In this document: piece by piece, positions 14,551 to 60,712 of the stretch
Layout: every line of letters begins with the position of its first letter
Position numbering within the stretch: position 1 is the stretch's first letter
NCBI GenBank assembly: GCA_045648885.1
Contig: JAZROV010000002.1
Location: 94,628 to 158,627, forward strand
DNA: 64,000 bases
Source of the DNA: Candidatus Enterousia sp.
GTDB taxonomy: Bacteria > Pseudomonadota > Alphaproteobacteria > Rs-D84
Direction: 5' to 3'
Notes under the pieces: generated by a model
Databases searched by the model: none
What the model was told of the DNA's origin: nothing
The model's input: only the letters and a program-made list of their open reading frames with translations
Program-made: the position numbers and the translations under genes

Positions 14551-15460
14551 AATATCCGGGGTTGGTATTCATTCTGGGTTGCCAGTTGATTTGGTTGTTT
14601 TGCCATCTAAGAAAAATGGGATTTTTTTTAAACGTGTTGATATGCCGGGTGCTGATTTAATTCCTGCCAGATTTGATAATGTTGGTGATACGTTTATGCG
14701 TAATACTACGATTGGCAAAAAAGATGGCGCACATGTTCAAACAATTGAACATTTGATGGCGACATTGTTTTTATTAGGTGTGGACAGTGCTGTTATCGAA
14801 ATCAATGGCCCCGAAACCCCGATTTTAGACGGCAGCGCCTATGAATTTTACAATGCGTTGAAAGACGCAGTCGGTAAAAAAACAAAAATGAAAAAAATCA
14901 TTGTTAAAAAGACAGTTGTTGCACACAGAAATGAATTAGCAAAACAATTACCTTTTTGGCGCCGTTTAAAGACGATAATTTTAAACCATACAGTTGGTCG
15001 GCGCGGAAATGGTTTCGTTAAATTGTCGCCAAATGACAAAGGATTATTTATCAATGCGACGTTGGTTTATCCTGATAAAATTATCGGGACACAATCGTTT
15101 TCTTGTGTGTTGGACGGAACAAAAAAATCTGTTGATAATTTTGTGAAAAATATTTCGAAATCTAGAACGTTTGGAAAATATTCTGAATGGGAATGGTTAA
15201 AGGCACACGGTATGGCACGTGGCGCAAATGAAAACAATATTATCGCGTTAAATGATTCAGGAGACGGAACATTGAATAAATTGCTGTATCCTGATGAATT
15301 TGTGCGGCATAAGATAATAGATGCTGTTGGCGATATGTTTACCAGTTCTGGATTTGTTTACGGTACGTTGGAATCGGTTAAAGGTTCGCATGCGTTAAAC
15401 AATTTGGTGTTAAGAAAATTATTCAGTGATAAATCTAATTATGAAATCATTGAAGAATAA
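14525..15460 (+). CDS. lpxC: UDP-3-O-acyl-N-acetylglucosamine deacetylase
   Basis: KISGVGIHSGLPV, HKIIDAVGDM and the zinc-deacetylase fold signature over about 310 aa. Confidence 0.8.
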   Translation: MTTITKKVKISGVGIHSGLPVDLVVLPSKKNGIFFKRVDMPGADLIPARFDNVGDTFMRNTTIGKKDGAHVQTIEHLMATLFLLGVDSAVIEINGPETPILDGSAYEFYNALKDAVGKKTKMKKIIVKKTVVAHRNELAKQLPFWRRLKTIILNHTVGRRGNGFVKLSPNDKGLFINATLVYPDKIIGTQSFSCVLDGTKKSVDNFVKNISKSRTFGKYSEWEWLKAHGMARGANENNIIALNDSGDGTLNKLLYPDEFVRHKIIDAVGDMFTSSGFVYGTLESVKGSHALNNLVLRKLFSDKSNYEIIEE

Positions 15461-15892: not shown

Positions 15893-17140
15893 TTGATGAA
15901 ACAAGTCATAACCGTTCGTCGCAGAAAATATGCAACAGGTCTTTTTTGGCAGCCTGTAAATCCGGGCGTGACACCGTATCTTTATGCGCGACAATTGGTC
16001 GCAAAAAGCGATAAAAAATATACTCTGTTGACCGAATATAAATCGATGATCGGGTTGGCAGAATCGCGCGACGGTGTTCGGTCGGGAATGAATACTGCTG
16101 CGGCAGAGGTTATGAACGCATTTCCTGAATTTTCATCATTTTTGGGTGTTTTTCGTGTAGATAATCGGTTTTATCTGGTTGCGGTGCGTAATGGTGTTAT
16201 TATTCGTGATGTTTTGGTGGAAAAAGAAAGCGATGCCCGAAAATTATACGCTGAATTATCAAATATGCCAGATTGGGGGGCGTTGTTTGCCCCGTCAAGT
16301 TGGGGTATGCCTCGTTCCCAGGAAAAATTTTTGCAAGATATTGTGAAAAATGAATCTGTGGCACGGTTGCGTCAAATCAGTATTGTAAAATCTGTCGCGC
16401 CGTCAATTGTTTTGTTTTTAATTTTATTGGGTGTTGGTTTGTATTTTCTTTATTCTCCGTTGTTTAAATCTATGTCTGCGCCAAAAAGCACAGGGTTGAA
16501 TCCTGAATTGATGGCCGAATATCAAAAGCAATTGGAAGCGAAAAACCAAGAATTAGACAAAGAGTTTGAGATTGTAAAATCTGCATTGGTTTATCCATAT
16601 GATAATTTGCCCGATGTCATGGAACGGGCGCGGCTTTGTTATAAAGCAACCGGGTTTGTGATGCAGCCTGTGATGGGTTGGGACCAGAAAAATACAATGT
16701 GTGACGAAGAACATGTATCTGTGGTCTTTACGCGTGATTTTGGAACATTAAATGATTTTTATTTGGTTGGTGGTGATGTTATGCCGGGCGGTATAGTGCA
16801 CCAGGTATCTGATAATGAAATTCGTGTGCGTGCAAAATTGCCGGCATTAAAAACACATTCTTCGGTTGATGAACGTGACCAAGAAACGGCTATGCGTGAC
16901 ATAGTTTCTGTTTTTCAACAGGTAAATATGAAAGCGGGTATCAGGGCATCAAATGAAATTATTCGTAATAATAAAGAAAAAGCAACTGTGAATTTTATAG
17001 AAGTCAGCGCGAGTTCTAAATTAGTGCCGTCTGAATTTATGCAGATATTTAATGATTTTGATGGTGTTTATATGAAATCTGTTGGGTGGGATGCAAGAGA
17101 TAGAATCTGGAATTACAACGTTGTTATTTATACAAAATAA
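15893..17140 (+). CDS. bitopic inner-membrane assembly protein (GspL/PilO-like) of a T2SS/T4P-family apparatus
   Basis: 415 aa with an ~160-aa cytoplasmic domain, a single TM (SIVLFLILLGVGLYFLY) and a periplasmic domain. It lies directly upstream of the PilP-like, ATPase and platform genes. Confidence 0.35.
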   Translation: MMKQVITVRRRKYATGLFWQPVNPGVTPYLYARQLVAKSDKKYTLLTEYKSMIGLAESRDGVRSGMNTAAAEVMNAFPEFSSFLGVFRVDNRFYLVAVRNGVIIRDVLVEKESDARKLYAELSNMPDWGALFAPSSWGMPRSQEKFLQDIVKNESVARLRQISIVKSVAPSIVLFLILLGVGLYFLYSPLFKSMSAPKSTGLNPELMAEYQKQLEAKNQELDKEFEIVKSALVYPYDNLPDVMERARLCYKATGFVMQPVMGWDQKNTMCDEEHVSVVFTRDFGTLNDFYLVGGDVMPGGIVHQVSDNEIRVRAKLPALKTHSSVDERDQETAMRDIVSVFQQVNMKAGIRASNEIIRNNKEKATVNFIEVSASSKLVPSEFMQIFNDFDGVYMKSVGWDARDRIWNYNVVIYTK

Positions 17141-17152
17141 AAAGGTGAAAAA

Positions 17153-17824
17153 ATGTTAAAGAAAATCTGTTTTTATTTGTGCTTTGGTGTATTTTGTGTG
17201 TGCGTTGGTGTCAATGCGTATGCAGAAGAATTCGAAGAAGTTTTTATTGAAGAAAGAAGTCCAGATGAAATTTCTGCCCAGGCGTTGGAAGATTACCAGG
17301 TAGAAGGTTCTTTGTTTGAACGTATTACAAATCTGGAACAAGAAAAATTAGTTATGCAATTGGAAAAAGACCGTATCGAATTAGATTTGGCGTTGGACAG
17401 ATTGAACAAAGAAAAAATCAAAATCCAACAAGAATTAGAAGATATGTCTGGGCGTGCAGACCGTCAACAGCAAGAATTAGAATTGGCCAAGGCTCAATTG
17501 GAAGAACAAACCATGGAATTGAAACGCAAAATGGAAGCGTTGGATAACAGGGTAGAAGAAGCACCTGTACAAAGAGAAACGCCAAAAAGACAAGAAGAGC
17601 CAGTCGATACATCTGTGCAGATTGTTGGTAAATATAAATTATTAAATGTTGTTGGTGTTGGTAATCAATTACAGGCTACAATTCAAGATATTGCAACGGG
17701 TCAAAATAAACGCATAGCAGTTGGTAAGCAATTAGATGGATATACTGTCAAATCTATTTCGTTAAACGACGGAATTGTGTTTGAAAAAGATGGTGTTTCA
17801 GAAAATTTGAATGTTGGAAAATAA
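17153..17824 (+). CDS. PilP/GspC-HR-like periplasmic coiled-coil protein
   Basis: Signal peptide, a long coiled coil, and a C-terminal beta-domain VGKQLDGYTVKSISLNDGIVFEKDGVSENLNV. Confidence 0.35.
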   Translation: MLKKICFYLCFGVFCVCVGVNAYAEEFEEVFIEERSPDEISAQALEDYQVEGSLFERITNLEQEKLVMQLEKDRIELDLALDRLNKEKIKIQQELEDMSGRADRQQQELELAKAQLEEQTMELKRKMEALDNRVEEAPVQRETPKRQEEPVDTSVQIVGKYKLLNVVGVGNQLQATIQDIATGQNKRIAVGKQLDGYTVKSISLNDGIVFEKDGVSENLNVGK

Positions 17825-17827
17825 AAT

Positions 17828-19456
17828 ATGGCGAACGAAGATAATTCTTTTGTAGAAATGTCAAATAAACCGTCTGTGCCAGCCGGGTTGGAGAACGCGG
17901 GCAGTAAAGACATTTTGGAATATTTGTTTTCAAATGATAATAAATTGCTGACGGCGACATCTGCGGAATATGCTTTGTCAAAAGACACCCAAGGATTGGT
18001 TGCGTATTTTTCTGGTGGTGAAATAATTATATCCAGAACACATCGATATGATGGTCGCGTGTTGGCTTTCTTAGATTTATTGCATCGTAATAATATTGTA
18101 ACAAAACAGCCGTTTTATTCTGATTTGGCGTTGTTGTCAAATATTTATAAAACAAATGATCAACGTATTGGCGAAGCAGATGCATCACGTTTTGATTATG
18201 AAAACCAGATGCAGAAAGATTTTGTTGATATTATCGCGCGTGCGGCCGCTCAAAAGGTGTCTGATATTCACGTTGAAGTTGCAGACCAGACAACAATTTA
18301 TTTCCGTATTGATGGAAGTATGCAACCGGTTTTGGAATATAATTCTCAATGGGGGGAATCTTTTGTTCGTGCGGCATTTGCGTCTGCGGATATATCTAAT
18401 TCTTCGTATGCACAAAATGAATACCAGGCTGCCCAGAAAGACGGTCGAACCCCATTGCGTGGTACGCGTGATTTGTATTTGCCGTCGGCTGTGTTGGGGG
18501 TTCGTATGCAATTTAACCCGATTGCGTTCGGCAGTCAATATTTGGTTATGCGTTTGCTTTATGATAACCCCAGCGAAGGTATCAAAACCGAACAGGAATT
18601 TAATGATTATGAACAAAAATTATTGATGCGTTTGCGTTCGGCGCCAACAGGTTTGGTTGTGGTTGCAGGGCCTACATCTTCGGGTAAATCGACAACGCTG
18701 GTGCATAATATGGCGTTGATGTTGAAAGAACACAGATACGAAATCAATTTGATTACCGTGGAAGATCCGGCAGAACAGAAAATTTTCGGCGCGCATCAAA
18801 TGCCTGTGGTGAACGCGTCTAATGAAGAACAACGTGATGCGAAATTTACAGAAGCGTTGGCAGCGGCATTGCGAAGCGACCCTGATACAATGATGGTCGG
18901 TGAGGTTCGTACTTTGTCTGCGGCGCAATTGACGGTCAAAGGCGCGTTGTCTGGGCATAATGTGTGGACAACGTTGCATGCGAACTCTGCAATGGGTGCG
19001 TTGACGCGTTTGTTGGATATGGGGGTAGAAGCGTTTAAATTAAAAGACGAAACCATGATGCGTGGATTGGTTTCAATGCGTTTGTTTAAAAAACTTTGTC
19101 CGTATTGTCGTGAACGTTTGATTGATAAACCTGATTTGCCGGTGTATCAACGTATGAAAGAAGCGTTCGGTGATTTGGGACTGCAACAGGCGTTTGTTCG
19201 TGGCGCAGGTTGTGAAAATTGCAAGGGCGCAGGAACAATCGGGCGTATCAAAGCAGGCGAAATCATTTTAACAAACAGTGAATTTTTAAGTTTCGCACTG
19301 GCCGGTGAAACTGAAGCGGCTTTGCGCTATTGGCTTGAAAAATTAGACGGCAGAACATTGAAAGAAGCCGCCATAGAATTGATGTTAAAAGGTATCATCG
19401 GCGTGGACGAAGTAGAACGTTGGGTTGGATTGTTGGACAGACCGTGGGTATATTAA
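17828..19456 (+). CDS. type II secretion / type IV pilus assembly ATPase (GspE/PilB family)
   Basis: Walker A AGPTSSGKSTT, His box TTLHANSAMGAL, and a tetracysteine zinc motif CPYCRE...CENCKG. Confidence 0.8.
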   Translation: MANEDNSFVEMSNKPSVPAGLENAGSKDILEYLFSNDNKLLTATSAEYALSKDTQGLVAYFSGGEIIISRTHRYDGRVLAFLDLLHRNNIVTKQPFYSDLALLSNIYKTNDQRIGEADASRFDYENQMQKDFVDIIARAAAQKVSDIHVEVADQTTIYFRIDGSMQPVLEYNSQWGESFVRAAFASADISNSSYAQNEYQAAQKDGRTPLRGTRDLYLPSAVLGVRMQFNPIAFGSQYLVMRLLYDNPSEGIKTEQEFNDYEQKLLMRLRSAPTGLVVVAGPTSSGKSTTLVHNMALMLKEHRYEINLITVEDPAEQKIFGAHQMPVVNASNEEQRDAKFTEALAAALRSDPDTMMVGEVRTLSAAQLTVKGALSGHNVWTTLHANSAMGALTRLLDMGVEAFKLKDETMMRGLVSMRLFKKLCPYCRERLIDKPDLPVYQRMKEAFGDLGLQQAFVRGAGCENCKGAGTIGRIKAGEIILTNSEFLSFALAGETEAALRYWLEKLDGRTLKEAAIELMLKGIIGVDEVERWVGLLDRPWVY

Positions 19457-20531
19457 TATGACAAAATTAGATTATTGGTGGGCAAAATTTAGTTTCAGAT
19501 TTGATACGCAAAAGCGTATGGCGGTCAGTAATAAAATCGCGTCATTGTTACGGAATGATTTTACTTTGATGGATGCGTTGCATCGTATTGAAATGATTGA
19601 ATCTCAAAATGGTAAAAAACCAGATGAAGCCTTTGCCATAGCTATGCGTGAAATCCAAAAAAATATGGAACAGGGGATGAGTTTTTCTGAGGCTACGCGT
19701 GGGTGGGTACCCCCAGATGAAACGTTATTATTGATGTCTGGAAATATGTCCAGTTTGGTTATATCTTTGGAAAATGTTTCGCGCGTTGTCAACGGGGTCA
19801 GTCGCATTAAACGTGCCATGACATCTGCGCTGGCATATCCGTTATTTCTGTTGGTGTTGACAATCGGTATTATTGTTATGGTCGGTGTTTATTTGGTGCC
19901 ACCATTGACAGAGGCAGCAGGCAGCAACATTGTTTGGCACGGGTCTGCACGATCTTTGATTTGGGCGTCTGATTTTTCAAATAAATATCTTTATCCTTTT
20001 TCCATAGGTTTGGGGGTTGCGATTCTTTTGATATGGATATCGCTTGCAAATTGGACTGGTAAATTGCGGACTGTGTTTGATAATTATCCGCCGTGGAATA
20101 TATATAAACTGCAAATATCGGTCAGTTGGATGATGTCTTTGGCTGCTATGGTTTCTGCGGACGTTTCTGTCCCAGATGCAATGCGGTTGTTGGCTGATAA
20201 TTCAAATCGGTATTTGGCGAATATTTTAAATGAAGCGCTGCATTATATTTCAAACGGTGATAATTTAGGAACTGCATTGGCCCAGACTGGTAAAAAATTC
20301 CCCAGTGAAGAAATCATAGGTGATTTGACGATTTATTCTGATATGAATGATTTTGATAAAAATATTAATAAAATCGCTAATGATTATATGGAAAATGCAG
20401 TGCGTCGTATGGAATCTTTGTCCAGTGCTATGAATGCAGCGGGGATGGCGTTGGTATCCGTTGTTATGGGTTGGGTCGTGTTGGGAACTTTTGCAATGCA
20501 AGAGCAAATTACGGCCGTATTGACAACCTAG
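19425..20531 (+). CDS. GspF/PilC-like inner-membrane platform protein
   Basis: 368 aa with three predicted TM helices at GspF-like positions, located immediately after the GspE-family ATPase. Confidence 0.5.
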   Translation: MDCWTDRGYINMTKLDYWWAKFSFRFDTQKRMAVSNKIASLLRNDFTLMDALHRIEMIESQNGKKPDEAFAIAMREIQKNMEQGMSFSEATRGWVPPDETLLLMSGNMSSLVISLENVSRVVNGVSRIKRAMTSALAYPLFLLVLTIGIIVMVGVYLVPPLTEAAGSNIVWHGSARSLIWASDFSNKYLYPFSIGLGVAILLIWISLANWTGKLRTVFDNYPPWNIYKLQISVSWMMSLAAMVSADVSVPDAMRLLADNSNRYLANILNEALHYISNGDNLGTALAQTGKKFPSEEIIGDLTIYSDMNDFDKNINKIANDYMENAVRRMESLSSAMNAAGMALVSVVMGWVVLGTFAMQEQITAVLTT

Positions 20532-34730: not shown

Positions 34731-36728
34731 ATGAATAACAGAAAAAGTGTTTTTGAACTCGAATCTGATTTTGCGCCGATGGGGGACCAGCCAACGGCGA
34801 TATCTGAATTGGTTAATGGGGTTCGTGAAGGCCGTAAATCTCAGGTTTTATTGGGGGTGACGGGGTCTGGGAAAACATTTACTATGGCTAACGTTATTCA
34901 AAAATTGTCGCGGCCGACGATGATAATGGCGCCTAATAAGATTTTGGCAGCGCAGTTATATACAGAAATGAAATCATTTTTTCCGCGCAATCATGTCGAA
35001 TATTTTGTTTCTTTTTATGATTATTATCAACCCGAAGCCTATGTCCCCACAACAGATACATATATCGACAAAGATGCCGCTATCAATGAACAACTGGATC
35101 GTATGCGACACAGTGCGACACGCGCGATGTTGGAAGAAAAAGACGTTATTGTGGTTTCATCTGTGTCGTCTATTTATGGTATTGGGGCGCCTGAACAGTA
35201 TGCCCAGATGAAATTGGCGTTAAATGTCGGGGATAAAGTTTCTGAGAAAGATGTTATGCGCGCATTGGTCGATATTCAATACAAAAGAAACGATATCGGT
35301 TTTGCGCGTGGTGATTTTCGTGTGCGTGGTGATACTTTGGATATATTCCCATCGCATTCGATGGATCGTGCTTGGAAAGTATCTTTCTTTGGCGATGAAA
35401 TTGATGAAATTTGGGAATTTGATACGCTGACCGGTGGAAAATTATTTAAATTAGACCGAATTGTTATTTATCCAAATACACATTATGCAACGCCTATGCC
35501 GTCTGTGTTGCAGGCGATATCTCAAATCAGAATTGATTTAGAAGAACGTTTGAAATATTTTCACGACAATATGAAATTTGTTGAAGAACAAAGATTGCGT
35601 GAACGTGTGAATTTTGATATCGAAATGATGGAATCAACAGGGACGTGTCGTGGAATTGAAAATTATTCGCGATATATGACGGGACGTTTGCCGGGGCAAC
35701 CACCACCAACACTGTTTGAATATCTACCGAAAGATGCGGTTTTGTTTGTGGACGAAAGCCATGTTTCTGTTCCCCAGATTGGCGCGATGTCGCGTGGCGA
35801 TCGTGCGCGTAAAGAAACTTTGGCACAATACGGTTTTCGGTTGCCATCGTGTGTGGATAATCGACCGTTGACGTTTGAAGAATGGGATAATTTGCGGCCG
35901 CAAACTATATTCGTATCGGCTACGCCGGCACAATGGGAATTAGAACAATCAAATGGTATCGTTTCTGAACAATTAATTCGACCGACGGGATTATTAGACC
36001 CAATTTGTGATGTTCGGCCAACCGCACACCAAGTGGACGATTTATTGGGTGAAGTTAAAAAAACATCAGGTCGCGTGATTGTGACGACTTTGACCAAGAA
36101 AATGGCAGAACAATTGACTGATTATTTCGTCGAAAATGGCGTTCGGGCGCGGTATTTACATTCTGATATTGAAACGCTGGAACGTATAGATTTATTGCGT
36201 GATTTGCGTTTGGGAAAATATGATGTTTTGGTTGGAATAAATTTGCTGCGTGAAGGTTTGGATGTCCCGGAATGTGAATTGGTCGCGATTATGGACGCAG
36301 ACAAAGAAGGTTTTTTGCGGTCTACGCGTTCGCTGATTCAAACAATCGGACGTGCGGCGCGTAATGCAAATGGACGCGTGATTTTGTATGCCGATAAAAT
36401 AACAGATTCTATGCGGGTCGCGCTGGACGAGACTGCGCGTCGTCGTGAAAAGCAAGAAAAATACAATCGTGAACACAATATTACGCCGAAAACAGTTTCA
36501 AAGGCTGTGTTTGAAGAAGTGAAAATCAAAGAAGAAAAAACAGATAAAATAAAAAAGTTTGTTTACAGCAAAGATGGTGGTATTATGGACAAAGAATCTT
36601 TGCAACGCGAAATAAAGGTGTTAACCAAAAAGATGCATGCGTTTGCTGAAAATTTGGAATTTGAAGCGGCGGCCCAGTTGCGTGATACAATTCATAAAAT
36701 GGAAGACGATTTATTATTATTGGAATAA
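34731..36728 (+). CDS. uvrB: excinuclease ABC subunit B
   Basis: GVTGSGKTFTMA Walker A, helicase motifs and the C-terminal UVR domain. Confidence 0.92.
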   Translation: MNNRKSVFELESDFAPMGDQPTAISELVNGVREGRKSQVLLGVTGSGKTFTMANVIQKLSRPTMIMAPNKILAAQLYTEMKSFFPRNHVEYFVSFYDYYQPEAYVPTTDTYIDKDAAINEQLDRMRHSATRAMLEEKDVIVVSSVSSIYGIGAPEQYAQMKLALNVGDKVSEKDVMRALVDIQYKRNDIGFARGDFRVRGDTLDIFPSHSMDRAWKVSFFGDEIDEIWEFDTLTGGKLFKLDRIVIYPNTHYATPMPSVLQAISQIRIDLEERLKYFHDNMKFVEEQRLRERVNFDIEMMESTGTCRGIENYSRYMTGRLPGQPPPTLFEYLPKDAVLFVDESHVSVPQIGAMSRGDRARKETLAQYGFRLPSCVDNRPLTFEEWDNLRPQTIFVSATPAQWELEQSNGIVSEQLIRPTGLLDPICDVRPTAHQVDDLLGEVKKTSGRVIVTTLTKKMAEQLTDYFVENGVRARYLHSDIETLERIDLLRDLRLGKYDVLVGINLLREGLDVPECELVAIMDADKEGFLRSTRSLIQTIGRAARNANGRVILYADKITDSMRVALDETARRREKQEKYNREHNITPKTVSKAVFEEVKIKEEKTDKIKKFVYSKDGGIMDKESLQREIKVLTKKMHAFAENLEFEAAAQLRDTIHKMEDDLLLLE

Positions 36729-36732
36729 AAAA

Positions 36733-37137
36733 ATGAAAGAAAAAATTTATTATTTGAAAAATTTAGACGAAACACACGCGTGGGCGCGTGATTTTGCAAA
36801 AACACTGCATGCGCCGCAAACCGTGGCTTTGCACGGTGATTTGGGTATGGGAAAATCAGAGATTGCACGCGTTATAATTAAAACTTTGCGCGGGGAAGAT
36901 ACGGTTGTGCCATCGCCTACATTTACATTGGTGCAAAATTATGATGGTATTTCGCATTTTGATTTATACAGAATTGGCGATAAATCTGAATTGGAAGAAA
37001 TCGGTTTGAAATACGCAATTGATAATGATATTACTTTGATTGAATGGCCAGAAATAGCAATGGACATTTTACCGTCAAATACAATACATGTTTATATCAC
37101 ACAAGATGGTGATGGGCGTAAATTAATGCTTCAATAA
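36733..37137 (+). CDS. tsaE: tRNA threonylcarbamoyladenosine biosynthesis ATPase TsaE
   Basis: LHGDLGMGKSEIARVI P-loop. The start MKEKIYY at 36733 lies in the frame of the longer track ORF. Confidence 0.7.
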   Translation: MKEKIYYLKNLDETHAWARDFAKTLHAPQTVALHGDLGMGKSEIARVIIKTLRGEDTVVPSPTFTLVQNYDGISHFDLYRIGDKSELEEIGLKYAIDNDITLIEWPEIAMDILPSNTIHVYITQDGDGRKLMLQ

Positions 37138-38907
37138 ACTTTGCACCGCCAATGGGAAATCGGGCGCTTTGGCAAGGTATGAACCGCTGACCAATAAATT
37201 TGCACCTGCATCCCAACATAATTTTGCAGTTTCGGGATTTATTCCGCCGTCAACACTGATTAAATATTTCAATCCGTGTTTTTTTCGTGTGTAATCTAAC
37301 ATTTTTATTTTCTGTAAAACAGATGGATTGAATTCTTGACCTGCAGCCCCAGGTGTGACGGCCATTACCATTATTTCATCAATGTCTTTTAATATCGGAA
37401 CCAATATTTCCAGATTTGATTCAGGATTGACAGCAATTCCACAACGTTTGCCAGAATTTTTTATAACATTTATTGCATCGCGAACCCCGGCAGTGTTCGT
37501 AGATATTATAATCGTGTCTGCACCAGCATTTATCGCGTCACGCGCCCAGACAGATGGGCTTTCTGTCATTAAATGGACATGCAGATGCGCGTTTGTGTTG
37601 GTGCGAATCATTGCCAATTCATCAATGCCGCCTGCGATTTTATCAACATAAAATCCATCCATAATATCAACGTGAATCATTGATATGCCGCCGCTGGCAA
37701 ACAATGTATATGTCGATGGATCACGCATGTTAAAACAAAGCGTGCTGGGTAAAATAGGGATAAACTTCTTTTTCGGCTTTGTTTTTTTCTTGTGAAATAT
37801 TTTTGTAATTTTTTTTGCAATATTTTGAATCTTTATTTGTTTTTGTAAATACGCGTTGCGTTCAGGCATACGTAATTGCCAAATGTATTCAGACAATGCG
37901 TTGATAGATGCAGATTCACTTTGATTATCAACAGGCATATTAAATGCGCGTTCAAAAACAGTGTTAATGTTTTCTATGGCGGTTCCGCCGCCGGATAAAA
38001 CGATTTTTTCAGGTTTATATTGTGCAATATATTTTTTTGATTGTTCAAAGATTTCTTTGATTAATTCATAAAGTTTCGGAATAAAGATGTCGTTCACATC
38101 TGCCCGTGAAAATTTCGAAAATTTTTCATCTGATGATGCAGGTGTAAAACGGTCCATTTCATTTGGCATCGCGTTTGCAACCAACCTTTTTAATGTGTCC
38201 GCATCCATTGTTCCAATCTGTAATTGCAGTGCCAATGTGTTTGTAATATCGCGTTGGCCAAATTTTATTTTATTGAAATAAAGCGGACCGCGATTTGTCC
38301 ATATCGATACAGTCGTGAATTCTTCGCCCAAATCTATAAATAAAATTTTTTCGTTTTCGTGTCTGAAAACCGCGTTTTGTAAAAATGCAGAATCAAAAAA
38401 ACCCGCAGATTGAATGTGCGCGCGTCGCATTATGTCAGAAATATAACGGGTGCGTTCTTGTTCATATGAAATTACGCTGTATATAGATTTTAATTGTGTT
38501 GCAATATGTCCAACCGGTGTGTTTTTTATGTTTGATATTGTCGGTGTTCCGTAAAATACAGGTATCAAATGCATTAAATAAAAATCATCGGGTGGTGTTA
38601 TTTTTGCAATTTGATGTTTCAGGTCTAATTCGGATATTTTATGTTCATCGTTCCATGTAATTGTATCGGACACGGTTTGAAAATCACAAACCCCGAAATT
38701 CCCAGTCACAAAAGTAGAATCAAAATGTGTGTTTAATTGTTTTTCCAGTTCATCAACAACATGGTTCAAAGCAAAAATCGTATTAGTATTTTTTACAAAA
38801 TGCGTTGCAGATTGTATTATTTTCGCATTTTTTACAATATGTGCAAACCCACGGACACCATATGTGCCAATATCCAGACAAAGAAATGATGAATGTGTCA
38901 AATTCAT
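37123..38907 (-). CDS. in-frame fusion of FtsA-like actin-fold ATPase (N-terminal) and ribulose-phosphate 3-epimerase (C-terminal)
   Basis: N-terminal ~375 aa show actin-fold motifs LCLDIGTYGVRG, LFIDLGEEFTTVSIW and KIVLSGGGTAI, followed by a Lys-rich linker. The C-terminal part GISMIHVDIMDGFYV...ISVDGGINPETA is Rpe. The ORF overlaps the ftsQ stop by 4 nt. Confidence 0.55.
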   Translation of the reverse strand: MNLTHSSFLCLDIGTYGVRGFAHIVKNAKIIQSATHFVKNTNTIFALNHVVDELEKQLNTHFDSTFVTGNFGVCDFQTVSDTITWNDEHKISELDLKHQIAKITPPDDFYLMHLIPVFYGTPTISNIKNTPVGHIATQLKSIYSVISYEQERTRYISDIMRRAHIQSAGFFDSAFLQNAVFRHENEKILFIDLGEEFTTVSIWTNRGPLYFNKIKFGQRDITNTLALQLQIGTMDADTLKRLVANAMPNEMDRFTPASSDEKFSKFSRADVNDIFIPKLYELIKEIFEQSKKYIAQYKPEKIVLSGGGTAIENINTVFERAFNMPVDNQSESASINALSEYIWQLRMPERNAYLQKQIKIQNIAKKITKIFHKKKTKPKKKFIPILPSTLCFNMRDPSTYTLFASGGISMIHVDIMDGFYVDKIAGGIDELAMIRTNTNAHLHVHLMTESPSVWARDAINAGADTIIISTNTAGVRDAINVIKNSGKRCGIAVNPESNLEILVPILKDIDEIMVMAVTPGAAGQEFNPSVLQKIKMLDYTRKKHGLKYLISVDGGINPETAKLCWDAGANLLVSGSYLAKAPDFPLAVQSLLKH

Positions 38908-39593
38908 TTTTTCGTTTTTACCAAAATTCTGGCATTATCACGCATGTCTATGATATCAATGTCGCGTGATAATATTTGATGTGTTTGATTTAATACGCTG
39001 ATTTTATTCACCGCAGATGCAGGGGTGTTTTCGGGTAAATAAATTGTCGTGCCGTTTTTTGTGTGAATGTTCCAGCGGCGACCTTCGACCATGTTTATAT
39101 AATCTATGTATTCAGACAATCCAGATACGTTTGCAATTATATCGGTTAAATTGTCGGGTAATTCACCACTGAATACAATCGTGTTTTCATTTGGTGTTTC
39201 AAACGGAGTGTCTATTTTTGTTCCGTCATCAGATAATGGATAATACATTGCGCCATCGGTCCACATAGCGATTGCGTTGTGTTGTTTTGTCTTGATAATC
39301 AAATTCCCATTAGGTAAACGGCGTGTTGCGGCATTTTTTATCCATGGAATAGATACCACGCGATTGTTTATTTGATGCAAATCCAGACCACGCAGTGGGG
39401 TCCCATGACGAATTCCAACCGCCATGCCAATTGGTTCCAAATCGGCGTCCCTGTGGTCAGATGTTATTTCAATATGTTTCACCGTAGATATCGGTCCGCG
39501 CCCAAGGTAAGAGGTTATAATACGCGTCGCAAAATATATTGCCAACAAAATAGACAACACAAAATACAGCCAAAACAGCAATGATTTTTTCAT
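38904..39593 (-). CDS. ftsQ: cell division protein FtsQ
   Basis: N-terminal TM, POTRA-like IEITSDHRDADLEPI, and a position upstream of the ftsA-like gene. Confidence 0.65.
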   Translation of the reverse strand: MKKSLLFWLYFVLSILLAIYFATRIITSYLGRGPISTVKHIEITSDHRDADLEPIGMAVGIRHGTPLRGLDLHQINNRVVSIPWIKNAATRRLPNGNLIIKTKQHNAIAMWTDGAMYYPLSDDGTKIDTPFETPNENTIVFSGELPDNLTDIIANVSGLSEYIDYINMVEGRRWNIHTKNGTTIYLPENTPASAVNKISVLNQTHQILSRDIDIIDMRDNARILVKTKK

Positions 39594-39642: not shown

Positions 39643-40026
39643 TTATTTTGCACGCAATAAATATCCGCGCTGTAACATGCATTTACGATAATATCCGGTT
39701 GTTTTTGATGCCTGGTTTGGCGGAACAGATAATAATGCGCGTTGGCCGACATCTTGGTATTCATTTGATTGGAATGTCACCCACAGACCGTCCCATTTTG
39801 GCATTTGTGCGCTTTGATTCGGGGACAATAACTTTGCAATTCGGGAACGCGGTTCATAATCTTTGCTTTTTATTCCCAGACAAGATTTATGGTCACGAAC
39901 AAACTGTTCCGTCGTGACAGCGTCATTTTCCCAATTTAATATTGTTGCATCGTCAATCGAACCATGGTTGACAGACGCACATGCCACTAAAAAAATAGGC
40001 AATAAAAATAAATATTTCATTCTCAT
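39643..40026 (-). CDS. small lipoprotein
   Basis: Lipobox FLVAC. Confidence 0.4.
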   Translation of the reverse strand: MRMKYLFLLPIFLVACASVNHGSIDDATILNWENDAVTTEQFVRDHKSCLGIKSKDYEPRSRIAKLLSPNQSAQMPKWDGLWVTFQSNEYQDVGQRALLSVPPNQASKTTGYYRKCMLQRGYLLRAK

Positions 40027-40103
40027 GTTATTATATTATAATTTAATTGCGTTCGGGGGGCAATAGTTTTTATAATGTAAAAAACAAAGGCAGGGAATAT
40101 ACC

Positions 40104-40427
40104 ATGGCAATAAATATTCAAAACTATGTAAAACTGGCAAATTTCTATAATGAAATGACGCGCGTTTTGTCTGCAATTTGTGTAGAAAAAGGCGGAATTG
40201 CGCTGGAAAATTATGTTGGACGTTTTTTTGCTGCCGATTGTTTGGAATATATTGTTGAATATGGAAAAAGATTAAAAAAATCTGGTGCACAATTAACAAA
40301 AGAAACACTGGATGTGATGGATTTGTTCGAAAAAAGATTTGAAACGGTCAAAGATTTTGTCACGCCAAATCAAAAACCTGTTTATGAAATGACGCTTGAA
40401 GAATTTGAAAAAATCATGAATATTTAA
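40104..40427 (+). CDS. hypothetical protein
   Basis: ORF 40047-40427. The Met at 40104 has a better RBS context. Confidence 0.3.
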   Translation: MAINIQNYVKLANFYNEMTRVLSAICVEKGGIALENYVGRFFAADCLEYIVEYGKRLKKSGAQLTKETLDVMDLFEKRFETVKDFVTPNQKPVYEMTLEEFEKIMNI

Positions 40428-40451
40428 CACTGGCAAAGAAAGGAAAGAAAT

Positions 40452-41777
40452 ATGACATTAAAAAAATATATAATTTTTGGACTTTTTATATGTGTCGGCC
40501 TGGGTGGGTGCGTGAAAAACGATTCTTTGGACACTGGTTATGACACGGTAAATGTTGTTGAAAATTTGGTCATAGATGAACGTTCTGTTCCAATTTTTCC
40601 GAAAAAGGCTGCGCTGACAACCGATACGGCACAACATTTTTCATTAGATTTACCAAAAAGATGCCGCGTTGATTGGAATAACCAGAGTATTGTTTCGGTT
40701 GTCCCCGAAGAAAAAGTCGAAATTGTTCGTTTGAATACTGGCGATGCATTGCCTGATTTAATGGTGTCTGATTATGAATTTAAAAATCGCTCTGTGAAAG
40801 ATGCGTTGGAAATTTTGTTGCAAGATACAGATATTTCTGTGTTGGAAGATTTGCCAATGTTGGAAAAAATAACAGGTACAATATCCAGTGGTTCCCTGCA
40901 AGATGCGGTTGATTTGATGACTAAATTGGGACGCGTGTATTATTCGTATGATGCAGAATTTGGCGAAATTCATTTAACTTCGCATGGTAAATGGATGATA
41001 AAAATGCCAAAAGACGAAACAATGATAATGGCTATGTTAGATGCAATGCGCGGTGGTGATGTGCGCAATTTGTTGGTCAACTGGCAAGATAAAACTGTTG
41101 TTTTCGAAGGTGATTATCAAACTGAACGCGAAGTAGCCAAATTGATAACAGATATTGCTGCAAAAAAATATGTTTTGGCGTGGGATATAGATGTATATCG
41201 CGTTTATCCGAAAACTGACAGTGCGATAGTTTGGATGGATATGTTGCCGGCATTCGGTGAAAAAAATATCAGAATGTCTATACCGGGGGTTGTTGGTCGG
41301 ACTTTGGTGGTCAGTCCAGAGATAAATACAAAAACACTGCAAGAATTTTTGTCGCGCCAGGCCAGTGTCGTTTTGATTTCCCAGGGGACTTTTGCGATAC
41401 CAAATGATTGGCAATCGCGATTTGATATCGGTCAATGCAGCAAAGAAGACAGATTAGAAACAGATTTAATAATTGGTGCGACGGGACATTACGGCGATTA
41501 CGGTGGATATAAAAAAATTGATGCGAAAATAGTGTTGGCAACGTCTAATGGCGAATTGTCTTCGTTCAAAATACCAACGAATATCGGTGATAATTATGTA
41601 ATTGTTGGTATCCCGACACATTCGTTTGTGACAACGCCGGAAACATTGATTTCTCCGTTTGCAGAATTAGTTGTGTTTATGTCGCCACGTTTGATATCTA
41701 TCGTTGATGACAGGGCGCATGTGTCGCGTATGACACCTCTTTATGGTGATGATTTGCGAGATTTTTTAGATCAATAG
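40452..41777 (+). CDS. outer-membrane lipoprotein, possibly secretin-like (TcpC/BfpB/PilN class)
   Basis: Lipobox GLGGC. A secretin-N/STN-like segment VKDALEILLQDTDISVLED. Near the C-terminus, ELVVFMSPRLI resembles the secretin domain ending. Confidence 0.35.
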   Translation: MTLKKYIIFGLFICVGLGGCVKNDSLDTGYDTVNVVENLVIDERSVPIFPKKAALTTDTAQHFSLDLPKRCRVDWNNQSIVSVVPEEKVEIVRLNTGDALPDLMVSDYEFKNRSVKDALEILLQDTDISVLEDLPMLEKITGTISSGSLQDAVDLMTKLGRVYYSYDAEFGEIHLTSHGKWMIKMPKDETMIMAMLDAMRGGDVRNLLVNWQDKTVVFEGDYQTEREVAKLITDIAAKKYVLAWDIDVYRVYPKTDSAIVWMDMLPAFGEKNIRMSIPGVVGRTLVVSPEINTKTLQEFLSRQASVVLISQGTFAIPNDWQSRFDIGQCSKEDRLETDLIIGATGHYGDYGGYKKIDAKIVLATSNGELSSFKIPTNIGDNYVIVGIPTHSFVTTPETLISPFAELVVFMSPRLISIVDDRAHVSRMTPLYGDDLRDFLDQ

Positions 41778-55879: not shown

Positions 55880-57460
55880 ATGAATATGTATCAAGTGTTA
55901 AAGCAAGTGGCGCAAGAATCGCCAAATGCTTTGTTTTTGGTACGCGAAAAAATCAGTTTTAAACAGGCTATGACCCTGATTCATGCACGGGCAAATACGC
56001 TGCATAAACTGGGGGTAAAATTCGGTGATGTTGTTGGTTTGTTGGCACATAATATACCTGAATTTCCTTTGACTCTTTTTGCGTGCTGGTATTTGGGGGC
56101 AACTGTTTTGTTGCTGGACACAAATTTAACACCGTTTGAATATGATAATATGACGAAAACGGTCGGTTGCAAATTGGTGTGTGCTGAAAAATCTTTCTTT
56201 TATGATACTAAAAAATTTAAGTTTTTTGATATTCAAACGCCAGATGATGGTGTGGATAAAGATTTAAAGCCGGCCAAAGTAGATGAAAATGATATTGCAA
56301 CTATGTCGTTTACATCTGGGTCAACCGGTACACCAAAGGTTGTTCCGTTGACGCACGGGAATTTGAAGACGTCGTCTGATTGTTATTCGGACATGGGGCA
56401 ATGGATACATAAAAATGAAATTATGTATGGATTTTTGCCGCTTTATCATGTGTTTGGTTTTGCAGCGGGGATTTTAGCGCCTTTGCATTTCCATATGGGA
56501 ATTTTATTACAGCCGACGGTGAATCCGAAAAATATTTTGGACGATTTTAAAACATATCGGCCACATTGTATTCCTGCGGTGCCACGCCTTTATGAGGTTT
56601 TTCGTAATAAAATAATCGAAGGTATCAAAGCGCAACACAAATGGTGGTTGGTTTCGTTTGTTTTGAAAAACCAAAAGTTTTTGAAAAAAATCGGCATGGG
56701 CTGGTTGGTGCGAATGATTCAAAAGCCTTTGTTGGCGATATTCGGTGGACGTGTGAATCTGATGATTGCAGGTGGTGCCGCTACAAAACCGGAAGTCGAA
56801 AGTTTCTATGAATCTTTGGGGTTGGCATTTGTCCAGGGATATGGAATGACTGAAACGGTTGGACCGTTTTGTTGTTCGCGTCCGGTCAAACACCGTGTAC
56901 CGTTTGCGTTTGGAACGCCGGTCGGATGTTCAGAATGCACTATTCGTGATATGGATGAAAACGGTGTTGGAACACTTTGGGTGCGTGGACCGAATGTCTT
57001 TCGTGGATATTTGAATAATAAATCTGCGAACGATGAATCTTTTGATAAAGATGGTTGGTTCAACACTGGTGATTTGGTCTATATGGATAAAAACAAACAA
57101 TATCATTTCGCAGGTCGTAAAAAACAAGTCATTGTTTTAGACAGTGGTAAAAATGTTTATCCTGATGAATTAGAAGGTTTGTTCATTGAAATCGAAGGCG
57201 TCAAAAATGTTGCGGTTTTTGAACACAAAGTGAATAATAAAACTGTCACATATGGCGTATTCCAGGTGGACGAAGATATGACCATGGAAAAGCTGGCTAA
57301 GGCCGTTGCAGAGGCAAACAAAAAAGTCGCGTCCTATAAATGGGTGACGCATTTTGCAATGACAACGGAAGATTTACCGATGACCAGTACTCAAAAGATT
57401 AAACATCATGTTGTTCGTCAGAATTTAATTGATGGAAAATATCCGAACAAACATGAATAA
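55880..57460 (+). CDS. AMP-dependent acyl-CoA synthetase/ligase, paralog 1
   Basis: TSGSTGTPKVV, GYGMTETVGP, TGDLVYMD and GRKKQVIVLDSGKNVYPDELE ANL-superfamily motifs. Confidence 0.75.
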   Translation: MNMYQVLKQVAQESPNALFLVREKISFKQAMTLIHARANTLHKLGVKFGDVVGLLAHNIPEFPLTLFACWYLGATVLLLDTNLTPFEYDNMTKTVGCKLVCAEKSFFYDTKKFKFFDIQTPDDGVDKDLKPAKVDENDIATMSFTSGSTGTPKVVPLTHGNLKTSSDCYSDMGQWIHKNEIMYGFLPLYHVFGFAAGILAPLHFHMGILLQPTVNPKNILDDFKTYRPHCIPAVPRLYEVFRNKIIEGIKAQHKWWLVSFVLKNQKFLKKIGMGWLVRMIQKPLLAIFGGRVNLMIAGGAATKPEVESFYESLGLAFVQGYGMTETVGPFCCSRPVKHRVPFAFGTPVGCSECTIRDMDENGVGTLWVRGPNVFRGYLNNKSANDESFDKDGWFNTGDLVYMDKNKQYHFAGRKKQVIVLDSGKNVYPDELEGLFIEIEGVKNVAVFEHKVNNKTVTYGVFQVDEDMTMEKLAKAVAEANKKVASYKWVTHFAMTTEDLPMTSTQKIKHHVVRQNLIDGKYPNKHE

Positions 57461-57490
57461 AAGATTTGGTTTTTATAAAAGGATGAAAAG

Positions 57491-59071
57491 ATGAATATGT
57501 ATGATTTATTACTTAAAAATGTAAAACGCAACCCGGATACTGTATTTCTGGTTCGCGAAAATGTGAATTTTAAAGATTTTGAAAAAATGGTGCGTGCGCG
57601 TGCGACAACTTTGCATAATGCGGGCGTGAAAGCTGGCGATGCGGTTGGTTTGTTGTCGCATAACATACCGCAATTTCCATTGACACTGTTTGCAATTTGG
57701 TATTTGGGGGCACGTGTGTTGCTGTTGGATACAAATTTAACTGCGACTGAATATGATAATATGACGCATTTAACAGATTGCAAATTGGTGTGTGCTGAAA
57801 AATCTTTCTTTTACGATGCCAAAGGTTTTAAATTTTTTGATATAGAAACAGAAGATAAAAAGACAGACGAAAAATTAAAACAATATCAATCAAAAGATGA
57901 CGATATTGCAACTTTGTCTTTCACATCTGGATCAACCGGTGTGCCAAAGATTGTGCCGTTGACACATTTTAATTTGGTTTCGTGTTCTGATAATTTGGAA
58001 TATTTAAATCAATGGTTAAAACCTGGTGAAATATTTTATGCGTTTTTGCCGCTTTATCATGTGTTTGGTTTCGCAGTTGGATTTTTAGCACCACTGCATT
58101 TCGGTATGGGAATATTGTTGCAATCGACAATCAATCCAAATGCGATATTGCAAGATTTTGCGCAATATAAACCACATGTTATTCCGGCTGTGCCGAAATT
58201 GTGGGAAATTTTCCGCAAAAAGATTATCGAAGGAATCAAAGCCAAAAAGAAGTGGGCGTTGGTTTCTTTCATTATGAATAATCAGAAATTATTGCGGGCA
58301 ATCGGTTTGGGTAAATTGGTTGATAAAGTTTTAACCCAGATTCGTTCTGTGTTCGGTGGTCGTGCCAGATTGCTGGTGGCGGGTGGTGCCGCTACAAAAC
58401 CGGAAGTGGAAAAATTCTATACTCAATTGGGTATGGCGTTCGTCCAGGGTTATGGTTTGACTGAAACCGTGGGACCAATCTGTTGTTCGAAACCATTGAA
58501 AAAACGTGTTGCATATGCGTTCGGTGCACCGATGGGTGATACAGAATGTCAAATTCGCAATAAAGACGAAAATGGTATTGGAATGCTTTGGGTGCGCGGT
58601 AACCAGATTTTGGGTGGTTATTTGAATAACGCAGATGCAAACAAAGACTGTTTCGACAAAGACGGATTTTTCTGCACTGGCGATTTGGTGTCTGTTGATA
58701 AAAACGGTGAATACCATTTTGCAGGTCGTAAAAAACAAGTTATTGTTTTGGACAGTGGTAAAAATGTTTATCCTGATGAACTGGAAGGTTTGTTCATTGA
58801 AATTCCAGGCGTGAAAAATGTTGCGGTCTTTGAACACGAAGTTGGTGGCAAAACTGTTGCATACGGTGTGTTCAGCGTCGAAGAGGGCATGACGATGGAT
58901 AAATTGGCGGCGGCTGTGGCGGCCACGAACAAAAAGGTTGCGTCTTATAAGTGGGTGACGCATTTTGCGATGACGACCGATGATTTGCCAGTGACCAGCA
59001 CTCAAAAGATTAAACATCACGTTGTGCGTCAATGGTTGATTGATGGTAAATATACACAAAGACATGAATAG
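57491..59071 (+). CDS. AMP-dependent acyl-CoA synthetase/ligase, paralog 2
   Basis: Same motifs as paralog 1. Identical length (526 aa) with long identical stretches. Confidence 0.75.
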   Translation: MNMYDLLLKNVKRNPDTVFLVRENVNFKDFEKMVRARATTLHNAGVKAGDAVGLLSHNIPQFPLTLFAIWYLGARVLLLDTNLTATEYDNMTHLTDCKLVCAEKSFFYDAKGFKFFDIETEDKKTDEKLKQYQSKDDDIATLSFTSGSTGVPKIVPLTHFNLVSCSDNLEYLNQWLKPGEIFYAFLPLYHVFGFAVGFLAPLHFGMGILLQSTINPNAILQDFAQYKPHVIPAVPKLWEIFRKKIIEGIKAKKKWALVSFIMNNQKLLRAIGLGKLVDKVLTQIRSVFGGRARLLVAGGAATKPEVEKFYTQLGMAFVQGYGLTETVGPICCSKPLKKRVAYAFGAPMGDTECQIRNKDENGIGMLWVRGNQILGGYLNNADANKDCFDKDGFFCTGDLVSVDKNGEYHFAGRKKQVIVLDSGKNVYPDELEGLFIEIPGVKNVAVFEHEVGGKTVAYGVFSVEEGMTMDKLAAAVAATNKKVASYKWVTHFAMTTDDLPVTSTQKIKHHVVRQWLIDGKYTQRHE

Positions 59072-59131
59072 TTTGATTTTGCGCCTGGGGGTATTTTTCC
59101 CCCAGACGCAATTTAAAAAAAGGTTTGTATT

Positions 59132-60712
59132 ATGAATATGTATCAAAAATTGGAAAATGCAGCAAATCAATGGCCGGAAAATTTATTTCTGGTGCGCGAA
59201 GGTGTAACGTATTCTCAATTTATTCAACAGGTGCGTGCGCGTGCAGCAACTTTGAACGAATTAGGAATTAAACATGGTGATGTGGTTGGTGTTTTATCTC
59301 ATAATTTACCACAATTTCCTTTGACGCTGTTTGCAATTTGGTATTTGGGTGGTGTTGTTTTAATGCTGGATACGAATTTGACGCCTTTTGAATATGATAA
59401 TATGGCGCAAATTGCAAATTGCAAATATGTTTGTGCGGAACCATCGTTTTTCTATAAAACAGATAAATTCAAATTTATAGATATAACACGCAAAGACGGG
59501 GATATAGATTATGATTTGCGTCCATATCCATCTGAATCAACGGATATTGCGACTATGTCTTTCACATCGGGGTCAACCGGCACGCCAAAGGTTGTTCCGT
59601 TAACACATTTTAATTTAACAGAATGTGCAAATTCATTGGAAGATATGTCTGATTATTATCATTCTGGTGAAATAATGTATGGCTTTTTGCCACTTTATCA
59701 TATCTTTGGTTTCGCGGTTTGCATATTGGGGACAATTCAATATGGGGGCGGTCTGGTATTACAGCCGGTTATAAACCCAAAATATATTTTGGACGATTTT
59801 CAAAAATTCAAACCACACGTTATCCCAATCGTGCCACGCGTTTTGGAATTGTTCCGTAATAAAATTATCGATGGAATGAAACAGCAAAAAAAATGGCGCG
59901 TTGCATCGTTCATTTTGAATAACCAAAAAACTTTGAAAGATATGGGGCTAGATTTCGTTGTTCGCAAAGTCCAAGAACCATTGTTGGCTATTTTCGGTGG
60001 ACGTGTAAAATTGCTGATTGCGGGTGGTGCGGCCACAAAACCAGAGGTTGAAAATTTCTATGAATCACTTGGACTGGCGTTTATCCAGGGTTATGGTTTA
60101 ACCGAAACTGTTGGGCCAATTTGTATTTCAAAACCGACAAACAAACGTATGCCATATTCTGTGGGTGCATCTACATCAAACAACGAATGCGAAATTCGTG
60201 ACAAAGATGAAAATGGCGTCGGTGTTTTGTGGGTGCGTGGACACCAGGTGTTTAATGGATACCTGAATAATCCAGAAGTCAATGCGACAGTTTTTGATGA
60301 AAATGGCTTTTTCAATACTGGCGATATGATGTACATGGATAAAAACGGCGAATTGCATTTTGCAGGTCGTAAAAAACAAGTCATCGTTTTGGACAGTGGT
60401 AAAAATGTTTATCCTGATGAACTGGAAGGTTTATTCATGGAAATTCCAGGCGTTAAAAATGTTGCGGTCTTTGAACACAAAGTTGGCGATAAAACCGTTG
60501 CATACGGCGTATTCCAGGTTGATGAAAATATGACGCTGGAAAAATTGTCGGCCGAAGTTGCAAACGCAAACAAAAAGGTTGCATCCTATAAATGGGTGAC
60601 GCATTTTGCGATGACAACGGATGATTTACCAATGACCAGCACGCAAAAGGTTAAACATCATCTGGTGCGACAAAATTTGATTGACGGTAAATATCCAGAC
60701 AGAAAGGAATAA
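59132..60712 (+). CDS. AMP-dependent acyl-CoA synthetase/ligase, paralog 3
   Basis: Same motifs as paralog 1, 526 aa. A terminator lies downstream at 60716-60745. Confidence 0.75.
   Translation: MNMYQKLENAANQWPENLFLVREGVTYSQFIQQVRARAATLNELGIKHGDVVGVLSHNLPQFPLTLFAIWYLGGVVLMLDTNLTPFEYDNMAQIANCKYVCAEPSFFYKTDKFKFIDITRKDGDIDYDLRPYPSESTDIATMSFTSGSTGTPKVVPLTHFNLTECANSLEDMSDYYHSGEIMYGFLPLYHIFGFAVCILGTIQYGGGLVLQPVINPKYILDDFQKFKPHVIPIVPRVLELFRNKIIDGMKQQKKWRVASFILNNQKTLKDMGLDFVVRKVQEPLLAIFGGRVKLLIAGGAATKPEVENFYESLGLAFIQGYGLTETVGPICISKPTNKRMPYSVGASTSNNECEIRDKDENGVGVLWVRGHQVFNGYLNNPEVNATVFDENGFFNTGDMMYMDKNGELHFAGRKKQVIVLDSGKNVYPDELEGLFMEIPGVKNVAVFEHKVGDKTVAYGVFQVDENMTLEKLSAEVANANKKVASYKWVTHFAMTTDDLPMTSTQKVKHHLVRQNLIDGKYPDRKE

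Follow-up and report, generated by a model that had tools for sequence, protein, structure and literature searches.

A probable ancient fusion of ftsA and rpe, located directly after ftsQ, in the alphaproteobacterial lineage of Candidatus Enterousia

A stretch of 64,000 nt from Candidatus Enterousia sp. (GenBank assembly GCA_045648885.1, contig JAZROV010000002.1, positions 94,628 to 158,627 of the forward strand), hereafter the window, was analysed. Directly after the cell-division gene ftsQ it carries, on the minus strand, a single open reading frame (ORF) of 594 amino acids (aa) in which an FtsA-like half is continued in frame by a ribulose-phosphate 3-epimerase (Rpe). The best explanation, given a probability of roughly 0.8, is a genuine and ancient ftsA::rpe fusion, maintained by selection in the lineage to which Candidatus Enterousia belongs and yielding a bifunctional protein made as one polypeptide. 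The NCBI taxonomy treats Candidatus Enterousia as an alphaproteobacterial genus whose placement is uncertain, and GTDB assigns it to the order Rs-D84. The initial annotation of this DNA had described an in-frame ftsA-like::rpe ORF overlapping the end of ftsQ by 4 nt, and the ORF list, the ATGA read at the overlap and the Pfam and NCBIfam matches confirmed it. The coordinates of all features are given in Table 1.

The same architecture was recovered repeatedly from other genomes. The best 120 database matches listed represent at least 120 protein clusters, all of 592–601 aa and 71–98% identity and all with both PF14450 and PF00834; where a name was given it was 'ribulose-phosphate 3-epimerase', from metagenome-assembled genomes of 'Alphaproteobacteria bacterium'. 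A scan of GTDB, with one genome per species, yielded 141 genomes that encode a relative, and the best 80 of these 141 were analysed. Every complete orthologue (76/76) was an ORF of 589–598 aa, and the Rpe domain was present in 78 of the 80 loci, the remaining two running off contig ends. Most of the 80 loci are titled Candidatus Enterousia sp., Alphaproteobacteria bacterium or uncultured proteobacterium, and their sources are rumen, horse, sheep, yak, goat and human gut. A deeper HMMER search, with the FtsA part only as query and a library clustered at 50% identity, added about 20 representatives of 542–623 aa that carry both domains and share 25–66% identity in the FtsA part; ordinary FtsAs of about 400–440 aa reached only scores below about 62 bits.

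Both halves are under strong purifying selection and neither is decaying. Against the closest relative for which DNA was available (L087, 97.6% amino-acid identity), the ratio of non-synonymous to synonymous substitution rates (dN/dS) was 0.03 for the FtsA part, with 59 synonymous versus 8 non-synonymous changes, 0.032 for the Rpe part and 0.056 for the linker, the linker values ranging from 0.05 to 0.3. For 24 more pairs above 85% identity, values of 0.04–0.11 were obtained for the FtsA part and 0.016–0.084 for the Rpe part. The proposal that a rearrangement had inactivated ftsA is contradicted by these low ratios and by the conservation of the FtsA part in every orthologue examined.

Profile and model comparisons indicate that the N-terminal half is FtsA-like and not another actin-fold protein. 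PF14450 (FtsA) matched residues 190–330 with 45.5 bits (cut-off 31.8). When a profile of 11 diverse FtsA-like parts was searched against the PDB, the top six matches were all FtsA (E 4e-25 to 1.6e-16), followed by MreB (6e-11) and PilM (3e-10); the FtsA matches cover residues 8–338 including subdomain 1C, whereas MreB and PilM match the C-terminal half only. Foldseek against the PDB likewise placed FtsA in the top 19 positions (358–393 aligned columns, template modelling (TM) score on the target 0.66–0.77, versus 0.56–0.59 for PilM), and the FtsA-like assignment first made from the letters alone held in both searches. The AlphaFold2 model, Foldseek and the PDB profile agree on an actin-like fold in which subdomain 1C takes the place of 1B. 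The 1C signature is H113-x-I-P116 ... P131-x-G133, aligned as LHxIP...NPxG, and its HxIP...PxG pattern is invariant. In an alignment of 32 diverse members of the fusion family, H113, P116, D95, D172 and D252 were invariant (32/32), PF14450 was detected in 25 and SHS2_FTSA (PF02491) in 10; the window protein itself gave no PF02491 match. The nucleotide-site motifs D12-x-G14-T15, D192-x-G194...T198 and G306-G307-G308 are invariant in the Enterousia clade and mostly retained in deep members.

The bacterial Z-ring is attached to the membrane chiefly by FtsA, whose helix at the extreme C-terminus is taken to be the tether. In the fusion, an amphipathic helix follows the core at an internal and not a terminal position. 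Residues 360–373 (IQNIAKKITKIFHK) reach a hydrophobic moment (µH) of 0.78, the highest in the protein; on the same scale, the tail of E. coli FtsA scores 0.57. The family median of the best moment in this region was 0.68, and the region was the single top 14-mer in 29 and among the top five in 42 of 75 complete members. Among 97 ordinary FtsA representatives, the median for the last 30 residues was 0.56; random internal segments gave a median of 0.44 with a 95th percentile of 0.64. Tails of ordinary FtsAs such as GIFSKIMNFMKNI and FLKKLLNSIKRMW resemble the fusion helices LKSNFEKLIKLFKR and WRKTIRKIITRLTK; the four most divergent members have no clear helix and retain the basic linker. Because it shares the sequence style of canonical FtsA tails, the segment is interpreted as the FtsA membrane-targeting helix, retained and now internal, to which Rpe has been joined by a Lys/Arg linker. 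As one of two readings, the initial annotation had proposed that the fusion replaced this helix, which its moment and sequence style speak against.

A Lys-rich string (KKITKIFHKKKTKPKKKF) spans residues 365–382, and the Rpe domain begins at about residue 383 (IPILPSTL, strand beta1). The linker sequence is variable, yet Lys/Arg-rich throughout the family. No internal start was found before strand beta1; the first in-frame ATG past that strand's beginning, codon 394, falls within the barrel and lacks a Shine-Dalgarno-like sequence. Rpe therefore has no start of its own and could be made only as part of the fusion, in line with the earlier description of a Lys-rich linker running into a complete Rpe. 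The DNA of the junction (37650–37950) reads through free of stop codons and frameshifts, and hundreds of independent assemblies share the frame; a sequencing error at this point, which had been named as one finding that would undo the fusion, did not come to light. In the AlphaFold2 model, built on 32 family sequences, the mean predicted local distance difference test score (pLDDT) was 90.4, with about 90–95 in the FtsA part. A helix was assigned by DSSP to residues 347–371, and pLDDT fell below 50 at residues 372–379.

The C-terminal half matched PF00834 (Ribul_P_3_epim) at residues 402–578 with 148.8 bits (cut-off 21.1) and NF004076 (rpe) with 182.6 bits (cut-off 165). Rpe ranked next after FtsA in the Foldseek results; the alignment with 2FLI covered 211 columns at 35% identity (TM 0.92–0.93, root-mean-square deviation 1.4–1.5 Å), and phmmer against the same entry gave an E value of 6e-37, with HxDxMDG, HLM and DGG identical. 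The metal and catalytic tetrad H412, D414, H445 and D553 aligns with HIDIMDG, HLM and VDGG of 2FLI, is invariant in the Enterousia clade and is kept in 30/32 diverse members. The barrel is complete and apparently catalytic.

The canonical order of the division and cell wall (dcw) cluster is ftsQ-ftsA-ftsZ-lpxC. In the window and in the related loci ftsQ lies upstream of the fusion and ftsZ does not lie downstream, so that the placement of ftsA between ftsQ and ftsZ is not found. The break in canonical order reported in the initial annotation was upheld, with tsaE as the next gene, on the plus strand, and lpxC beside lpxK. The 229-aa FtsQ matched POTRA_1 (27.8 bits) and FtsQ_DivIB_C (40.7 bits), each above the Pfam cut-off, and 79 of the 80 related loci have an FtsQ homologue directly upstream, on the same strand. 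The ATGA overlap suggests translational coupling of the fusion to ftsQ; a spacing of −4 was estimated in 33/80 loci, most others lying within a few bases, and an ATGA-type overlap was also read at loci L001, L002, L085 and L087. The FtsZ signature GGGTG[ST]G had no match anywhere in the window by motif search, and tblastn with an E. coli FtsZ query found no ftsZ in 83 sequences totalling 1.45 Mb; among the Pfam matches of genes in further loci there was none either. A second Rpe and a second FtsA-like ORF were not found within the window, and annotation of its other large ORFs revealed neither these nor an FtsZ.

Table 1. Position of the ftsA::rpe fusion, its parts and neighbouring genes in the window.
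Feature	Position	Strand	Remarks
Fusion ORF ftsA::rpe	37123..38907	-	594 aa plus stop
FtsA-like actin-fold core	37870..38907	-	Residues 1-346
Long helix	37789..37869	-	Residues 347-373
Amphipathic basic helix IQNIAKKITKIFHK	37789-37830	-	Residues 360-373; C-terminal part of the long helix
Basic disordered linker KKTKPKKKF	37762..37788	-	Residues 374-382
Complete Rpe (beta/alpha)8 barrel	37126..37761	-	Residues 383-594
ATGA overlap, ftsQ stop and fusion start	38904..38907	-	4 nt; TGA of ftsQ within ATG-A of the fusion
ftsQ	38904..39593	-	229 aa; N-terminal transmembrane segment, POTRA and FtsQ/DivIB C-terminal domains
Predicted lipoprotein gene	39643..40026	-	127 aa; signal peptide with lipobox-like LVAC; directly upstream of ftsQ
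tsaE	36733..37137	+	Convergent; 3' end overlaps 3' end of the fusion by 15 nt; end of the division operon
lpxK	13624-14550	+	Adjoins lpxC, about 22 kb from the fusion
lpxC	14525-15460	+	Overlaps lpxK by 26 nt

The gene for the 127-aa predicted lipoprotein, whose product had zero Pfam or NCBIfam matches, has a homologue upstream on the same strand in 58/80 related loci and may be the first gene of the operon. Between lolC and ftsQ (39643–41777) the window holds genes for a 441-aa protein with a signal- or lipoprotein-like N-terminus, a 126-aa protein and the 127-aa predicted lipoprotein, none of the three with a Pfam or NCBIfam match; the genes of this interval are syntenic across the lineage (58/80 related loci), deep members L085 and L089 included. 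The neighbourhood of the fusion in deep members is recognisably the same, with lolCD, a conserved uncharacterised protein of about 435 aa, ftsQ, tsaE and lpxK-lpxC, and in one deep locus, L083, ftsI precedes ftsQ. TsaE was identified by PF02367 (111 bits) and TIGR00150 (91 bits). The longest tsaE ORF, of 166 aa, begins inside the end of uvrB (extra stretch 36637–36732); as TsaE of the relatives measures 132–134 aa in the same arrangement, translation probably begins at the ATG at 36733 (M33 of the listed ORF), giving 134 aa. DUF374-lpxK-lpxC (12869–15460, plus strand) forms a three-gene block conserved in the lineage and also present in L085 and L088. In L088 this block is found upstream of the fusion and the ftsQ-like gene, at a distance of about 2 kb. 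Some members thus have lpxC close to their division genes, but on the side opposite to its canonical place after ftsZ.

Several observations weigh against a genuine fusion with two working halves. The FtsA part is very divergent, with 14–18% identity to solved FtsAs; TIGR01174 (ftsA) matched residues 46–342 with 75 bits, below its equivalog cut-off of 175.85, and NF007009 with 19 bits, below 409. Its phosphate-2 loop reads D-L-G-E-E-F-T and not D-I-G-G-G-T, so that ATP binding is not assured. In the Rpe part, TIGR01163 reached 158.7 bits, below its equivalog cut-off of 212.6, and the phosphate loop is PGAAGQ, not PGFGGQ. The predicted TM score of the AlphaFold2 model, 0.63, is uninformative on the relative placement of the two halves. 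ftsZ was found neither in the window nor within ±10 kb in 89 related loci, in a search confined to these stretches. Finally, individual lineages have lost active-site or nucleotide-site residues. A sub-clade of three members (P0145, P0147 and P0149) is without D12 and D192 of the FtsA nucleotide site, these being replaced by Y and by N or H, respectively, with the Rpe tetrad intact. In two others the Rpe tetrad is lost but the domain kept (P0136, Y/T/H/C; P0130, N/D/N/Y), and catalysis is therefore not the sole reason for retaining the Rpe domain. Constraint thus seems to have been relaxed on different halves in different lineages.

With a genuine fusion as the preferred reading, the following course of events is proposed. 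The origin was probably loss of the ftsA stop codon, once rpe had been placed downstream of ftsA in an ancestor that no longer had ftsZ at this position; read-through into rpe would have followed, so that one polypeptide of about 65 kDa would be made. Its parts would follow in the order FtsA core, internal amphipathic helix, short disordered Lys/Arg linker and Rpe barrel. The fusion would share a transcript with ftsQ, and the ATGA overlap would probably couple its translation to that of ftsQ. The FtsA part would bind nucleotide, bind the membrane by its helix and, through FtsZ binding, link the Z-ring to the late divisome, and the Rpe part would be the enzymatically active ribulose 5-phosphate/xylulose 5-phosphate epimerase of the cell, tethered at the inner membrane face in an uncleaved polypeptide. 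Such tethering may be beneficial, or the fusion may be a neutral by-product of genome reduction that was later locked in.

The Rpe domain might instead be a working part of the division machinery. Bacterial Rpe is hexameric, and Rpe enzymes form dimers or hexamers, so the domain could cluster FtsA units and their helices; the solved entries are multi-chain (12 chains in 2FLI, 6 in 1TQJ). In Caulobacter, the metabolic enzymes GdhZ and KidO regulate the Z-ring. According to one doubtful proposal of this kind, the domain would be more than a passenger enzyme and would cluster FtsA and the helices by oligomerising, or would gate FtsA through pentose phosphates. In both cases the pentose-phosphate pool would govern division, and perhaps the supply of precursors of 3-deoxy-D-manno-octulosonic acid (Kdo) and lipopolysaccharide (LPS), in bacteria that have to import most metabolites. 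In the radical version of this proposal ftsZ has been lost and FtsA-Rpe works without a Z-ring. Slightly less probable again is that the domain is mainly a structural or regulatory divisome module, clustering FtsA units and helices or sensing pentose phosphates to couple division or envelope (Kdo/LPS precursor) synthesis. Persistence of the fusion across very deep divergence fits such a role, and a catalytically dead domain kept in P0136 and P0130 hints at a structural one. Those two members also show decay of the FtsA motifs, however, and may for that reason simply be degenerating. The invariance of tetrad and substrate loops in the Enterousia clade, and the retention of the tetrad in nearly all diverse members, are what a working enzyme predicts, and oligomerisation and sensing are without direct evidence.

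It is unlikely that the N-terminal domain is not the FtsA of the cell, and is instead another FtsA/PilM-type actin-fold protein, such as the PilM of pilus assembly, or a paralogue that was taken up to serve Rpe as a scaffold or regulator, with the real FtsA elsewhere or absent. The weak matches to the FtsA equivalog models, further weak matches to PilM_2 and MreB_Mbl, the genes resembling those of type IV pili or type II secretion systems (T2SS) at 15.9–20.5 kb of the window and the absence of ftsZ directly after the gene would agree with it. FtsA was nevertheless the best match by every method and over the whole domain including 1C, the structural scores favour FtsA over PilM, and SHS2_FTSA was detected in part of the family. 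The gene stands directly after ftsQ in all but one of the analysed loci, after ftsI-ftsQ in L083, carries an FtsA-style amphipathic tail and is unlinked to pilus genes.

A shade less likely still is that the fusion is a precursor, separated by proteolysis of the linker or by slippage, in transcription or translation, on the poly-A runs into a canonical FtsA with C-terminal helix and a free Rpe. The linker is disordered and very basic, and an extra A at its A7 run would give a 392-aa product ending shortly past the helix. Slippage would not give free Rpe, however, and no protease site or internal start is evident. Poly-A slippage yielding stand-alone FtsA as a conserved mechanism was rejected, because an A run of at least 7 occurs in the linker of only 32/77 relatives. 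Only a negligible chance was given to an artefact, in which the ftsA stop or a frameshift was removed by an error of sequencing or assembly, or in which a pseudogene is decaying after the dcw cluster was broken by a rearrangement. In its favour, the linker is rich in A, with error-prone homopolymer runs (A8 and A7), and the genome of the organism is reduced. The conservation data refute it: frame and length are the same in clusters from several sources and in all complete GTDB orthologues, and they persist at 25–45% identity, at which the DNA no longer has anything in common. In addition, dN/dS is close to 0.03 to either side of the junction, and no pseudogene accumulation has been reported for Rs-D84 genomes (PMC12306168).

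Members of Rs-D84 are gut bacteria with genomes of about 0.7–1.6 Mb that lack most biosynthetic pathways and have an incomplete glycolysis; the non-oxidative pentose-phosphate steps are encoded in most of the genomes, and MreB, RodA and MrdA are present in these bacteria as well (PMC12306168). The text of that study (2025, mSphere) leaves FtsZ, FtsA and an FtsA-Rpe fusion unmentioned. Since the sources label the fusion 'ribulose-phosphate 3-epimerase', it is probably the rpe counted in the pentose-phosphate inventory of Rs-D84 given there. A full-text literature search found no paper describing an FtsA-Rpe fusion and none pairing Rs-D84 with FtsZ. The sequences are public and labelled as Rpe only, and both domain families are well known; what is new is the architecture together with the internal membrane helix. 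Two records titled 'uncultured Muribaculaceae bacterium', L076 (OZ246409.1, a complete chromosome of 716,531 bp) and L052, carry an alphaproteobacterial ftsQ-ftsA::rpe, and their label looks wrong.

If the preferred reading of a genuine fusion is correct, a whole order carries a 24-kDa enzyme behind the FtsA helix over very deep divergence, and the helix works, or at least is tolerated, as an internal element. The fusion would also be a 'Rosetta-stone' hint that links pentose-phosphate metabolism with division. As annotation pipelines name it Rpe only, surveys of Rs-D84 or Enterousia score FtsA as missing and metabolic reconstructions overlook the tethering of Rpe.

Other genes of the window were recorded as well. 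A 396-aa protein with an N-terminal 'Major tropism determinant' domain (Mtd_N, 55 bits, above cut-off) is encoded at 9188–10378 (plus strand), among glycosyltransferase genes. The Mtd_N domain is known from targets of phage diversity-generating retroelements; such an element was rejected here, no repeats of at least 40 nt being found nearby and no reverse-transcriptase domain in the neighbouring ORF. Three tandem paralogous genes for AMP-binding enzymes, each of 526 aa (PF00501, 212–222 bits), occupy 55880–60712 (plus strand); the deep relative L083 has two adjacent copies, and the tandem set is striking for a genome below 1 Mb. The type IV pilus/T2SS-like set (15893–20531, plus strand) comprises a PilO-family accessory protein, a T2SSE ATPase and a T2SSF platform protein. 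Type IV pili have been reported for UBA9783 genomes and not for Rs-D84 (PMC12306168).

The fusion was compared with canonical FtsA (TIGR01174; structures of Thermotoga maritima 1E4F/4A2A, Staphylococcus aureus 3WQT, Vibrio maritimus 7Q6F and E. coli 7Q6D). Like these, it has an actin-like fold with the FtsA-specific subdomain 1C and the HxIP...PxG motif, keeps the DxGT, DxG...T and GGG motifs of the nucleotide site, is encoded directly after ftsQ and has an amphipathic basic helix about 15 residues past the core. It differs in a core shorter by about 35 residues, in GEEF for GGGT at phosphate-2, in the internal position of the helix, followed by an enzyme domain of 212 aa, and in not having ftsZ as the next gene. 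The Rpe reference set comprised PF00834, NF004076 and the structures of Streptococcus pyogenes 2FLI, potato 1RPX and Synechocystis 1TQJ, with which the fusion shares the full (beta/alpha)8 barrel, the His/Asp/His/Asp tetrad, the methionine cushion (M416, M447 and M515) and the DGG and GS phosphate loops. Unlike them, its barrel is without a start of its own and is tied at its N-terminus to FtsA by the basic linker, and it shows PSTLCFN for PSiLsaD at beta1 and PGAAGQ for PGFGGQ. Caulobacter GdhZ and KidO, B. subtilis UgtP and E. coli OpgH resemble the fusion in that an enzyme of central metabolism is physically associated with the FtsZ/FtsA machinery; they are separate proteins that bind FtsZ reversibly, in contrast to the covalent link of the fusion, for which regulation of division is hypothetical.

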